This document shows, in pieces, positions 3,675-45,431 of a stretch of 64,000 bases of DNA. Within the stretch, counting starts at the first letter, position 1, and every line of letters begins with the position of its first letter. The notes under the pieces were generated by a model. That model made no database searches. It was not told the DNA's origin and saw only the letters and a program-made list of their open reading frames with translations. The stretch comes from a virus (taxonomy: Duplodnaviria > Caudoviricetes): the IMG/VR virus record IMGVR_UViG_3300028914_000064, positions 1-64,000 of that record. One strand, given 5' to 3'. The translations under genes were made by a program, and so were the position numbers.

Positions 3675-6600
3675 GTGAGAATAATGCGGAAAAATGAAGG
3701 AAATATTATTCAGATTGGATTTTATAGTGATGTAGAAGGTTTTATAAAAGAAATAAGACAGAAATTGTCATATGTAAAAGATTGGGGATTAAAGGATTCT
3801 TTCAAGGAAGAAGTTGATGACTTAGAAAAAATGCTTTCTAATCTTTCAAAGTCCTTTTCTGATGGAATGAGTGCGAAGCTTGATACAAAGACGTTTGCGA
3901 CTTTCAAGAAGGAAATGGCCAATGAAATAAATGAGGTTGTAAAGCGTATAGAAACCCTTGAAGACACTGTTCAGGGTCTTGTTCTTACGTTTGATTCAGC
4001 GGATGGAGGAAAATTTAAAACATATATTTCTTCTGTTAGCTCAGATGTAAATAACCTTAAAACTACTATTGAATATACTGTTAAAGCAATTGAAGAGCTT
4101 AAAAGTGTAATAAGTAGAAGTGATGGGAAAATTCAATTTGCTGATGATCGTACTACTGTTCTTCTTAATAAGGAACTTTCAGAGCTTCAAGAAATAAAAA
4201 GTCTTCGTGAACAGATAGCCAGTATTATAGATGACAATAAATCTGGAAGTACTGAAATATCTCCAAATATGAAAGAAGCTAAAGAGCAAGTTGAGGATTA
4301 TGGTAAAAAATTAGAAGAAGCTCAAAAAAAATTATCTAAAGGTTTAGCAGGTAGTGTAGGTGGTAGAAAATTGACAACCCTTCAATATGAGTTGGCTGTT
4401 GTCACTGAACAGATAGCATCATTGTTTCAAGATGCAGGAGGAAAATATGGAGATAAAGTAAAAGATGTTTTTTCTTCTAAAATTCGAGAGATGATGTATA
4501 ACGCTGAGGGCGAAGTTCTTACTTTCGAAGAAAGAACTCAAAAAAGAATTGAGAAAGTCAGAGAAGGATTAAATCAGTTAGGAAATCCTTCTGCTCTTTC
4601 AATGGATAAAGCAAGAACTACTTTGTTTGCTCCTTTGGATATTAGTACTTCAAGTAAAGATATAATTGATAAAGCAATTAAGATTATCAATAAAGCTCAA
4701 AAAGAGATAGATAATAATCCTTTAAAAATAGAGTTTGTTCTTTCGTCAAAATATTCCTCTAGAAAGACAAATAGTCTTTTATCAGAATGGCAAAAACAGA
4801 TAGATAACATTGAAGATGATGAATTAAGAGAAAAATTCAAAGGTCTTTATGAAACCATTGCAAAAGATTTTAAAAAAGAGATAAAGTTCACTGTTACCCC
4901 CGACATCAATAATGCTGAAGCAAAAGTAAATAAACTTATTGCAGACATTAAAAAAAAAGTTGAAAGTAAAATTCATCTTCAATTTGAAATCAAAGAAGCC
5001 GATTTAAGAAAAATTCAGGGTAATCTTGATAAACTTACTTCTAATCTTAAAGTAAATCTTTCTGATTTAAATATTGTTGAGGTAACAGATTCAATTAAAG
5101 AAGCAACGGAATCACTTCAAAAGATGTTGGGTGTTTTTTCAAAAGAAGATCTTGATAGTATTTTTGAAAGAATGCGGACATCAATTGAGGGAATAAATGG
5201 AAGTCTCCGTGGTGGTGATAAAAACGAACTTGTTTCACAATTAAAAGAGATTTTAGTTCTTTATAAGCAATATAAGGATATGGGTGGAACTAATACTCTT
5301 ACTGATCTTGGTGGAGCAAAAAATGTACAGAATTGGCTTTCAAAACATGCAGATGATGAGATTCAGACTTCTAATTCTTTTGTTTCTGAAGGCAAAAATG
5401 GAATTCAAGGATATGCAGAAGGTATTCGTGAAGGGATACCAGAAGTTGTGAAGGCAACGGAAGAATTGGTGAAAGCTGCGCTCAAAACTCTTCAAAAAGC
5501 ACAAGAATCTTACTCTCTTATTGGGAAAAATTCAATCAAGGAATATGTAAAAGAATTTGAGAAAGCGACTGATGAATTAAAACGAGTTGCTTCAAAATTA
5601 AGTGACGATACTATTAAGTCATCAAGTATTTCTCAACAAAAGAAAAAGGCTTCAACTCAAAAAACAAAAAAGAAGGCTGATAATGCCTTGGTAAGTGATT
5701 CCCAACCTCTTATTTCGAAAAATGTTTCTAAAGAAATTGAAAAAGCTGCTACTGCTATAGAAAAAGAAGGGAAATCTGCTTCAACTGCTAAGAAAAAAAA
5801 AGAAGACTTTGCAAAAGCAAATGAAAAAGTTGCAAAGGCAAGTAAAAAAACTGCTGAAGAAACTAAAAGTGCTACTGAAGCTATAGAAGCAGAACAAAAA
5901 AAAGCAGAAAAAGCTAGAGAAGCAGCTCTACAATATGAACAAAGAACCCGTAGAGCAAATGATCAAAAAGTGGGTAATGATAGAGAAGCAGCTTTACAGT
6001 ATGAACAAAGGACAAGAAGAGCAAATACTCAGAAAGAAGAAAAAGAAAGAGAAGCAGCTTTACAGTATGAGCAGAAAGTTCAAAAAGCATATACTCAAAA
6101 GATAGATAAAGAAAGAGAATCTGCTTTACAATATGAACAGAGAACAAGAATGGCAAATGCTCAGAAAGAAGAAACGGATAGAGAAGCTGTTTTGCAATAT
6201 GAGCAAAAAACCAGAAGGGCAAATGCTCAGAAAGAAGAAAAAGAGCGAGAAGCTGCTTTACAATATGAACAAAAAACTCGAAGAGCAAATATACAACAAG
6301 AAGAAAAAGATAGAGAAGCTGCTTTACAATATGAACAAAAAGTTCAGAGAGCTTATGCCCAAAAACTAGAAAAAGAACGAGAAGCCACTCTACAATATGA
6401 GCAAAAAACAAGAAGAGCAAATGCCCAAAAAGAAGAAAAAGAAAGAGAAACTATTTTACAGTATGAACAAAAGGTTCAAAAAGCTTATGCTCAAAAGACG
6501 GAAAAAGAGAGAGAAGCCGCCTTGCAATATGAACAGAAAGCTCGAATGGCAAATGCTCAAAAAGCGGAAAAAGAAAGTGAACAGGTTCTTAGAGAAACTC

Positions 6601-43292: not shown

Positions 43293-44459
43293 ATGATTAA
43301 ATCTATGAAAGTAATGTTACTTCCTAACAACGTTCAAAAGACAAGGCTATTCCAACACGCAGGAGCGGCAAGATTTCTTTATAATTGGGCTCTTTCAATG
43401 GAAGAAAAGAATTATAAATTAGGCGGAAAATTCATATCATATTATGAGCTTGCAAAAGAACTTACAGAGCTTAAGAGAACAGATGAATATGCATGGCTTA
43501 ACGAAATATCAATCACAACATGCCAAAAGGCTATAAAAGATGCCTGTGATGCCTATTCTAACTTTTTTAAGAAAAGGGCAAAATTTCCCAAATATAAATC
43601 AAAGGATAAGACAAAACCAAGTTTCTTTCAGACAGACCAGGTTATAGAATTTACCGATACACATGTAAAGCTAAGTTGTTTGTCCCTTAGCAGGAAGGCA
43701 AATAGAAAACAATTAAACTGGGTAAGACTTGCAGAACATGGCAAGATACCAATAAATGTAAAGCATAGCAATCCGAGGATAACTTACGATGGTCTTAATT
43801 GGTGGATAAGCGTAGGGATAGAATATCCTGATAAGAATGTAAACTTATCTGAAGAAGGATTAGGTGTTGATCTAGGAATAAGGAACCTTGCTGTGTGTTC
43901 TGATGATAGCATTTATCCTAACATCAATAAGACCAAGGCGATCAAAGATTTAGAGAAGAGAAAACGAAGATTGCAACGAAGTATATCCAGGAAATATGAG
44001 ATGAACAAAAAGGGGGATGAATTTGTAAAGACAAAAAATATAATAAAAGATGAAAAAAAGTTATTAAAGATGCACCACAGGTTGAGTAATATTAGGAAAA
44101 ACTATTTACATCATACATCAAAAGAAATAGTTGAAAAGAATCCTAAATTCATCTGTATTGACGACCTAAATATTCAGAGCATGATGAAGAATAAATACCT
44201 TGCAAAAGCAATTCAGGAACAGTCACTTTATGAATTTTCAAGGCAGCTTGAATATAAGAGTAATTTCAAAGGAATCCAATTTATAAAAGCAGACAGGAAA
44301 TTTCCATCATCTAAGAAATGCAGTCAATGTGGCAGGATAAAGAAAGATTTAAAACCTTATCAAAAGACATATAAGTGTGAGTGTGGAAATGTTATTGATG
44401 TACATAAGCAAGCGGCGCTCAATCTTAAAACATATGGAGAAGAGAATATTGCAGAATAA
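43293..44459 (+). CDS. tnpB: IS607-type TnpB derivative with degenerate RuvC active site, CRISPR-associated
   Basis: MIKSMKVMLLPN..Q HTH start; RuvC-I GVDLG intact; RuvC-II CIDDLN (E to D); RuvC-III IDVHKQAALNL (DRD to DVH); zinc finger intact; no tnpA nearby. Confidence 0.85.
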   Translation: MIKSMKVMLLPNNVQKTRLFQHAGAARFLYNWALSMEEKNYKLGGKFISYYELAKELTELKRTDEYAWLNEISITTCQKAIKDACDAYSNFFKKRAKFPKYKSKDKTKPSFFQTDQVIEFTDTHVKLSCLSLSRKANRKQLNWVRLAEHGKIPINVKHSNPRITYDGLNWWISVGIEYPDKNVNLSEEGLGVDLGIRNLAVCSDDSIYPNINKTKAIKDLEKRKRRLQRSISRKYEMNKKGDEFVKTKNIIKDEKKLLKMHHRLSNIRKNYLHHTSKEIVEKNPKFICIDDLNIQSMMKNKYLAKAIQEQSLYEFSRQLEYKSNFKGIQFIKADRKFPSSKKCSQCGRIKKDLKPYQKTYKCECGNVIDVHKQAALNLKTYGEENIAE

Positions 44460-44466
44460 TATTATT

Positions 44467-44634
44467 GTACCGAAAGCTGGTTCGGGAATTTACGCCTATG
44501 GAGAGTACTTGAACTTGTTAGTAGACAGCACCATCGTCGAAAGCATACTCGATGAAATAGGAATGGATCATAAAAGTATATCTTTTTATAAGTATTCAGC
44601 CGGGATTTAGTCCCTTGCATCTTATGAATTTGAC
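44467..44634 (+). ncRNA. omegaRNA-like scaffold with 3' anti-repeat (tracrRNA-like)
   Basis: CCGAA-AGCTGG-TTCGG hairpin whose loop can pair with TCAGC (44596-44600); CCTAT/ATAGG and GAGTA/TACTC stems; 44613-44634 complementary to the CRISPR repeat. Confidence 0.7.
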
Positions 44635-44934
44635 CTTTTAGAAGTATGTAAATTTGCATGGGTGTAAAGCCAGTGACTTTCTTTGCTTTGTATCCAGTAT
44701 CTTTTAGAAGTATGTAAATTTGCATGGGTGTAAAGCAGAAAAGGCTGTCAGCTACGTTAAATCCATCTTTTAGAAGTATGTAAATTTGCATGGGTGTAAA
44801 GCTTACAGACATGTCACCTTGTTCATAAAGTTCTTTTAGAAGTATGTAATTTTATATGGGTGTAAAGCAAGAAGTCACATTGAAACTATATTCGGATACT
44901 TTTAGAAGCATGTGATTTTATATGGGTGTAAAGT
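44635..44934 (+). CRISPR. CRISPR array, 5 repeats of 36 nt and 4 spacers of 30 nt
   Basis: CTTTTAGAAGTATGTAAATTTGCATGGGTGTAAAGC at 44635, 44701 and 44767; degenerate copies at 44833 and 44899. Confidence 0.95.
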
Positions 44935-44957
44935 ATTGATGGCTATGTGAGGATTTC

Positions 44958-45215
44958 ATAGATGCAAAGCGTCTTTTTGAGAAAATAACTAAAAGGCGGG
45001 CAATAGATGCAAAGCCCTCTCGCTTGCTATGTAATGCGTGACTATTATGGATGCAAAGTTGAAGTGTTTCAGAGTTAAAAGAAATAAGCTTGGGAACAAA
45101 TTATTAGCAGATATTGCTTTTAGGAGCCAAAACACCAAACCTGTTATTGTATACCTCTAACAAGGCTCCTAAAAGCTTATCAAGATGCAAAGCTAGACTA
45201 TAATGGATTCAAAGT
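44958..45215 (+). repeat. Dispersed 13-nt mini-repeats (ATRGATGCAAAGY)
   Basis: Copies at 44958, 45003, 45047, 45181 and 45203. Confidence 0.7.
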
Positions 45216-45248: not shown

Positions 45249-45431
45249 ATGGGGATAGAAGGACTTAAGTTAATAATATGCTTACTTAGCATAAATGTGA
45301 TGATTATAGCTTTTTTGATGTTAAAAACTATTCTATTGCAGAAACGAATGCTCAATATTATTGAAGATATTTTAAATAGACAAAAAAATATATTTAAAGA
45401 TTTTTTAGATATTGATAATGAAGGAAGTTAA
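45249..45431 (+). CDS. Small membrane protein
   Basis: GGAGG RBS; one transmembrane segment. Confidence 0.55.
   Translation: MGIEGLKLIICLLSINVMIIAFLMLKTILLQKRMLNIIEDILNRQKNIFKDFLDIDNEGS

Follow-up and report, generated by a model that had tools for sequence, protein, structure and literature searches.

Truncated repeat ends trail the CRISPR array beside a phage-borne, predicted nuclease-dead TnpB

TnpB, RNA scaffold, and CRISPR array of the locus

We analyzed a 64-kb stretch of DNA (64,000 nucleotides, here called the window) from a 126-kb phage genome; the features described below lie on its plus strand. An IS607-type TnpB of 388 amino acids is encoded at positions 43293 to 44459 and is predicted to be nuclease-dead, based on Pfam domains, a structure match, and alignment. 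It carries the domains HTH_OrfB_IS605, OrfB_IS605, and Cas12f1-like TNB, and its best solved relative is the IS607 TnpB 8iaz. In the alignment, IDVH or IDIH takes the place of the IDRD that array-less relatives (at most 64% identity) have kept. The RuvC-III aspartate is histidine in every array-bearing relative (asparagine in L127), and the RuvC-II glutamate is aspartate in most array-bearing members. TnpB dN/dS is 0.05 to 0.09, indicating that the altered protein is under purifying selection. In several relatives (L126 to L130), an overlap of a few bases joins the TnpB start codon to an upstream gene for an HTH_3 (XRE-type) protein of 109 to 112 amino acids, suggesting that a classical repressor-like protein is co-translated with an RNA-guided one; the matching position of the window holds an unrelated 51-amino-acid open reading frame (ORF).

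Following the gene is a reRNA/tracr-like scaffold (44460 to 44614), identified by a RAGATH-18 match at 44495 to 44563 (Rfam RF03064, 64.4 bits) and two hairpins. In IS607 TnpBs, the guiding reRNA has RAGATH-18 as its core (PMC11061315). One hairpin lies at 44570 to 44589; the other, a small GGGA-loop-TCCC hairpin at 44602 to 44614, is kept among relatives with differing loops. Maps of 15 related loci delimit a further 20 nt (44615 to 44634) between the scaffold and the first repeat. This stretch begins with TTGCATCT(T) at 44615 to 44623, nearly invariant in the clade and in all 15 loci, then becomes variable, and closes with the conserved leader end AATTTGAC (44627 to 44634) directly before repeat 1. 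Positions 44599 to 44633, which include TTGCATCT, are 86% identical over 35 nt to the coding sequence for the DTPGFSSL region of an rsgA GTPase in a Lachnospiraceae metagenome-assembled genome (MAG; G001:C61:151890-151925, L110 485-525; E value of 0.002 for that genome). Either the flank of the original transposon or a guide once directed at the host could have left this resemblance behind.

The CRISPR array, found by repeat search at 44635 to 44934, consists of five 36-nt repeats (starting at 44635, 44701, 44767, 44833, and 44899) and four 30-nt spacers. Repeats 4 and 5 are degenerate, with 92% and 82% identity to the reference copy. Among the relatives compared, such arrays are confined to a TnpB clade with at least 78% protein identity. 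The 36-nt repeat, with its 30-nt spacers, resembles Firmicutes type II-A repeats, and about 23 of its 36 positions agree with the Streptococcus pyogenes repeat. No cas1 or cas2 was found in the window, so host machinery may acquire spacers in trans. A repeat search of 401 Lachnospiraceae genomes gave no match, which says little, as the search pattern had one letter too many.

Of three regular spacers tested, two have a match in IMG/VR. Spacer 2 (44737 to 44766) matches a complete 45-kb phage at 30 of 30 positions (G404:C1:17044-17073; L115, L118), on the sense strand of a small Cys-rich ORF, with CTTTTTAA as the 5' flank and TTATAAGG as the 3' flank. Spacer 1 matches a provirus over its first 20 nt (G405:1698-1717), and the third spacer matches solely its own arrays. 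One full protospacer match is too few to define a TAM. Together, the TnpB, RAGATH-18, the array, and the phage-matching spacers indicate a TranC-like system carried by a phage and directed against other phages, its dead effector being of TldR-like character. The altered RuvC residues and low dN/dS point to what may be a binding-only effector, coupled to an array that is still gaining spacers.

Repeat ends in the tail of the array

The array is followed by three truncated units of 36, 45, and 44 nt (44935 to 45059), each ending in the 13-nt repeat end (44958 to 44970, 45003 to 45015, and 45047 to 45059). A hairpin unit containing an inverted repeat, together with a fourth motif copy (45181 to 45193), occupies 45110 to 45193, and a degenerate fifth copy with a GATTCAAAGT core and two mismatches lies at 45203 to 45215. 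A sequence-only reading of this DNA had placed copies at all five positions, had given gaps of 32 and 31 nt for the first three, and had these differ from the last 13 nt of the CRISPR repeat by transitions alone; we found the same in each respect. Successive units are spaced by 36, 45, 44, 134, and 22 nt.

The degenerate motif RATGCAAAGY has four matches in the window against 1.04 expected, all on the plus strand between 44961 and 45193. Both strands of the whole phage genome hold seven matches, four of which fall within 230 nt just 3' of the array. A genome-wide regulatory motif is ruled out by the count of only three other copies in 126 kb. Iterons or an operator array for a DNA-binding protein were set aside on the same count and on the irregular spacing. 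A protein-coding tail is ruled out by indels that vary among relatives, and a known RNA family in the tail was rejected because Rfam gave no match.

In the hairpin unit, the 5' arm (45116 to 45128) resembles the 5' end of the repeat, the loop carries the invariant ACACCAAAC, and the 3' arm (45164 to 45176) is followed by TTATCA and then the motif at 45181 to 45193. Across six loci, 5 of the 17 predicted pairs show compensatory changes. A second block in this region (45110 to 45181), TATACCTCT, is also present in L076, L131, and L018. A consensus scan placed a promoter-like site (TTATCA-16 nt-TATAAT, 10 of 12 matches) at 45177 to 45204, overlapping the fourth motif copy; by our own reading of the loci, its -10 element is weaker in relatives. 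Farther 3' lies a small hydrophobic ORF of 60 amino acids (45249 to 45431), taken from the ORF list and by synteny, which follows the tail in most relatives, in synteny at 39 to 48% amino acid identity.

The tail as the old end of one array

In related phages, where conservation of the motif bears directly on the sequence-only reading, the tail pattern was found in most relatives with at least 78% identity. In most of these, full repeats pass without a break, on the same strand, into degenerate full-length repeats ending in AGATGCAAAGC and then into units of 17 to 54 nt, which retain about 10 nt of the spacer-proximal end and nothing more of the repeat. At the distal end come the conserved hairpin unit and a small number of additional short units, and these lead up to the small hydrophobic ORF. 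Variable spacers lie on the TnpB side, and common spacers and the common tail lie distally, which identifies the tail as a trailer. Spacers and units are common to L001 to L003, L017, and L034, and likewise to the window, L076, L013, and L131.

The tail is contiguous with the array, on its strand, with repeat identity that falls away from the leader and with old units common to relatives. Thus, from the comparison of loci, the tail is the truncated old end of one array, and the separate second array of mini-repeats that had been proposed gives way to the trailer end of the adjacent one. An independent CRISPR array would have regular repeats of about 23 to 50 nt and similar spacers; the repeats here are 10 to 13 nt, and since unit spacing in relatives is irregular (17 to 149 nt), they do not form a regular array. 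The alternative already raised in the sequence-only reading, that these are trimmed old array units, fits the relatives, in which every intermediate form was seen. Several short units are repeats with visible internal deletions, and two 28-nt units in L001 to L003 are tandem duplicates. The 44-nt unit at 45016 to 45059 is also present in L076 and L013 and measures 17 nt in L131, where a deletion between two TGC microhomologies rebuilt the motif at the junction.

A sequence logo of 54 distinct units has information at RATGCAAAGC and none in the flanks on either side. Hence, of the proposed 13-nt mini-repeat, the copies are real, and the length conserved among relatives is closer to 10 nt.

One relative, L124, has an 81%-identical dead TnpB, the TTGCATCT block, and five identical repeats, and no tail there (L124 3763-4142 and downstream), indicating that the tail is dispensable. 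Its gene context differs, with an FtsK/TrwB-like neighbor, which indicates that the module moves between element backbones. A search for relatives through the upstream 122-amino-acid ORF, as an empty-site test, found none. In L001, one spacer containing GATGCAAAGT occurs twice (4379 to 4408 and 4773 to 4802) as part of a duplicated array block; it matched none of the fetched tails.

Guides carried by the short units

Guides matching mobile-element or host targets, expected of crRNA units and exemplified by spacer 2 of the regular array, were not found for the mini-guides. For those that follow 44970, 45015, and 45059, IMG/VR yielded no exact 20-mer match. The tail guides gave no match in GenBank phages, in the phage's own genome, or in any of the fetched loci, nor did they match the two phages matched by regular spacers. 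Guide sequences are not conserved between subclades. The suggestion that the units are ancestral fixed guides is unsupported, given this lack of conservation and the three mini-guides without a target.

Pairing with the block 3' of the scaffold

Three copies of the motif carry AGATGCAA, the exact complement of TTGCATCT (44615 to 44622), and the motif is a better Watson-Crick match to that block than the full repeats are, as the sequence-only reading had also observed. The mini motif forms its best predicted duplex at this block, with an energy of -10.5 kcal/mol against -7.1 ± 1.8 for shuffles, a lead of about 1.8 standard deviations that does not set it clearly apart. Only 6 bp (ATGCAA/TTGCAT) are consistently pairable, and in 17 of 54 units an A faces the C of TTGCATCT. 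The block varies only in L036 and L130 (TTGCATTT) and in L124, too few for covariation with the motif. The case for pairing between the motif and the block is thus a weak one, and the selection for tracr pairing that had been proposed is not demonstrated by 6 consistent base pairs, an A in nearly a third of the units, a modest energy difference, and a relative with the block and no tail.

By analogy with IS607 reRNAs (PMC11061315), TTGCATCT would sit where the cis guide starts. The 5' end of the repeat resembles the 3' strand of the scaffold hairpin at 44570 to 44589, suggesting that the reRNA was probably split there. With a split in the loop of this hairpin, the crRNA would need the 5' part of the repeat, which is absent from the mini units.

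Retention of the motif

Six tails contain 30 exact copies of GCAAAGC against 0.1 expected, and 16 copies with one mismatch, 11 of which have one of two transitions that also occur in working repeats. The 5' end of the repeat is represented by one or two near copies per tail, so 3' remnants exceed 5' remnants by about 10 to 1. Between subclades, TnpB dS is 0.7 to 2.5, synonymous sites are saturated, and the tails are unalignable except for the hairpin and the motifs. The tail consensus ATGCAAAGC is the same across subclades, although the genomes concerned now carry different repeats (GTGTAAAGC, GTACAAAGC). Judged from these alignments and counts, retention of the motif is not neutral: in homologous loci, it is conserved far above neutral expectation.

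In close pairs, a substitution test found motif columns to change no more slowly than the rest of the tail (P of 0.1 to 0.9), at low power and with some misalignment, the alignment near the ORF being shifted. The tails of L001 and L002 differ by 1.3% and their TnpB genes at 33% of synonymous sites. Tails this much closer than the genes beside them must recombine, and their true age may be less than one would read from the gene tree.

What keeps the repeat ends

The explanation that we tentatively favor, and put somewhat short of an even chance, is that old trailer units have been truncated and that their guide-proximal handle is still used by the dead TnpB. New spacers enter on the TnpB/reRNA side, leaving the oldest units distal. 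Internal deletions, along with some local duplications, have cut these down until the spacer-proximal RATGCAAAGC was left, an older version of the repeat end than that of the current repeats. Trailer origin and shortening can be seen in, or follow directly from, the comparison of loci; from there on, we infer that the repeat end was kept because, in TnpB/type V-style RNAs, it is the portion that remains joined to the guide 3' of it. From tail transcripts, the nuclease-dead TnpB would thus still receive short RNAs made of handle and guide, or else decoys of the handle, and the handle may dock by pairing with the invariant TTGCATCT directly 3' of the reRNA scaffold. Any tail guides would act by binding rather than cutting, as the effector is without the RuvC-III aspartate. 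The ISFba1 TnpB can do without the 21 nt adjoining the guide (PMC11061315), and TldR relatives work with guides down to 9 nt (bioRxiv 10.64898/2026.09.22.753285), which makes conceivable a handle of 10 to 13 nt that pairs with the block and carries a guide. Such docking would explain why the guide-proximal repeat end is the only part retained. That the tail goes further and serves as a working bank of hard-wired guides, each loading the dead TnpB through an approximately 10-nt handle on the TTGCATCT block, we consider unlikely. If it does, the phage combines an adaptive array with inherited regulatory guides, and the locus is a stepwise record of how short a repeat still works.

A serious rival, to which we give a smaller but substantial chance, is that the tail is purely fossil, a decayed trailer of no present function whose 3' ends survive through mechanistic bias. 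Such ends could arise by out-of-register spacer integration inside the repeat, duplicating its last ~14 nt and giving units of about 44 to 45 nt, and units of 43 to 45 nt (a 30-nt spacer plus ~14 nt) do recur in the window, L001, L076, and L127; the units of 17 to 30 nt cannot be explained in this way. Microhomology deletions that rebuild the motif at the junction would be a second route, exemplified by the TGC deletion in L131, but these should spare the 5' end of the repeat equally, against the roughly 10-fold excess of 3' remnants. Decay alone would agree with the missing short-term constraint in close pairs, the tailless L124, the mini-guides without targets, and the recombination between tails seen in L001 and L002, by which tails may be of more recent date than the gene tree implies. 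It does not readily account for one motif version persisting across subclades with saturated synonymous sites, unlike the current repeats. The converse history, an independent proto-array of ~13-nt repeats that predates the 36-nt repeats, draws on the distal units being shortest and on the tail motif being the most palindromic version, and so possibly ancestral. We regard it as very improbable: degenerate full-length repeats stand among and before the short units, several of which are visibly repeats with internal deletions; spacing is irregular and guides are not conserved between subclades; and L131 shows a long unit turned short.

Two further explanations, both of which we hold to be quite improbable, place the function of the motif outside crRNA-like units. 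The motif copies may be DNA operators, bound by the dead TnpB through a fixed short cis guide starting TTGCATCTT; the minus strand reads GCT and then TTGCATCT, and the complex would be a TldR-like repressor or roadblock before the small ORFs that follow. Position 44614 is the last of the scaffold hairpin, which would put TTGCATCTT at guide positions 1 to 9, 20 nt from repeat 1 (PMC11061315 for scaffold lengths), and the conservation of these first 9 nt with a variable remainder recalls a short TldR guide (bioRxiv 10.64898/2026.09.22.753285). The best site (9 nt, 45181 to 45193), which is also the best-conserved copy, overlaps the promoter-like element at its -35, and the invariant AGC of the motif could be explained as a TAM. 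Weighing against operators are matches of only 6 to 9 nt, the flanks of one full and one partial protospacer (TTTAA and AATCA), which disagree with a GCT TAM, a -10 element that is weak in relatives, and the persistence of the TTGCATCT block in L124 without tail sites. Alternatively, the tail could be a regulatory 5' leader or RNA element for the downstream ORFs, independent of guides and affecting, for example, how the transcript is processed or how stable it is, or soaking up the tracr-like RNA or an RNA-binding factor. No terminator was found that would separate the array from the ORFs, the tail goes together with the small-ORF context and is absent or minimal where that context is absent (L124, L127), and the hairpin, with its five compensatory pairs and conserved loop, may belong to such a leader. 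The motif itself, however, is the repeat end, tied to the array by intermediates, and is not used elsewhere in the genome, and known RNA families gave no match in the tail.

Meaning of the tail and comparison with known systems

If the truncated ends favored above as handles are still read, they would define the minimal crRNA handle of a TnpB-derived effector and would reveal a phage system, acting by binding only, in which adaptive and fixed guides naturally coexist, bearing on how the reRNA split into tracrRNA and crRNA and on compact guide RNA design. If they are fossils only, they document that this array decays through truncation in which the spacer-proximal repeat end is strongly favored to survive. 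Tails of this kind escape CRISPR finders and can serve for orienting and dating arrays.

Trailer decay, TranC, and TldR are known; as far as searchable texts go, a tail of guide-proximal ends behind a dead-TnpB array has not been described. The tail resembles degenerate CRISPR trailer repeats in position, strand, polarity, progressive decay, and old units common to relatives. It departs from ordinary trailer decay in its truncation to the ~10-nt spacer-proximal end over 4 to 12 successive units and in having one motif version across subclades. Solitary repeat units and mini-arrays of phages act as RNA anti-CRISPRs that mimic whole host repeats. Like these, the tail has repeat fragments that a phage carries apart from a regular array and that could titrate CRISPR components or bind them, although here they are 10- to 13-nt ends of the phage's own repeat.

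ISFba1 (PMC11061315) has the closest solved relative of the effector (8iaz), the same RNA family, and a similar protein length; it differs in its active nuclease and in a single flank-derived guide without an array. TranC systems are TnpB-CRISPR intermediates (Jin et al. 2025, as cited in bioRxiv 10.64898/2026.03.27.714800). They combine a TnpB-sized effector, a transposon-derived reRNA scaffold, and a short array without cas1 or cas2, typically of about five 36-nt repeats, and phage-borne examples exist. The locus likewise has a TnpB-like effector adjoining an array with a reRNA-derived scaffold between, as in TranC and type V-like systems. The intact RuvC catalytic triad, a second mark of TranC, is absent in the TnpB alignment, the effector here having lost the catalytic aspartate, and a tail of truncated ends is not described for TranC in the parts of the literature that were searched. 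With TldRs, some of which are phage-encoded and for which 9-nt guides can suffice, the locus has in common a nuclease-dead TnpB under purifying selection, and it has a conserved 9-nt block where a cis guide would be expected. TldRs use one fixed guide without an array; here, the dead RuvC is found beside an array with changing spacers and a tail.
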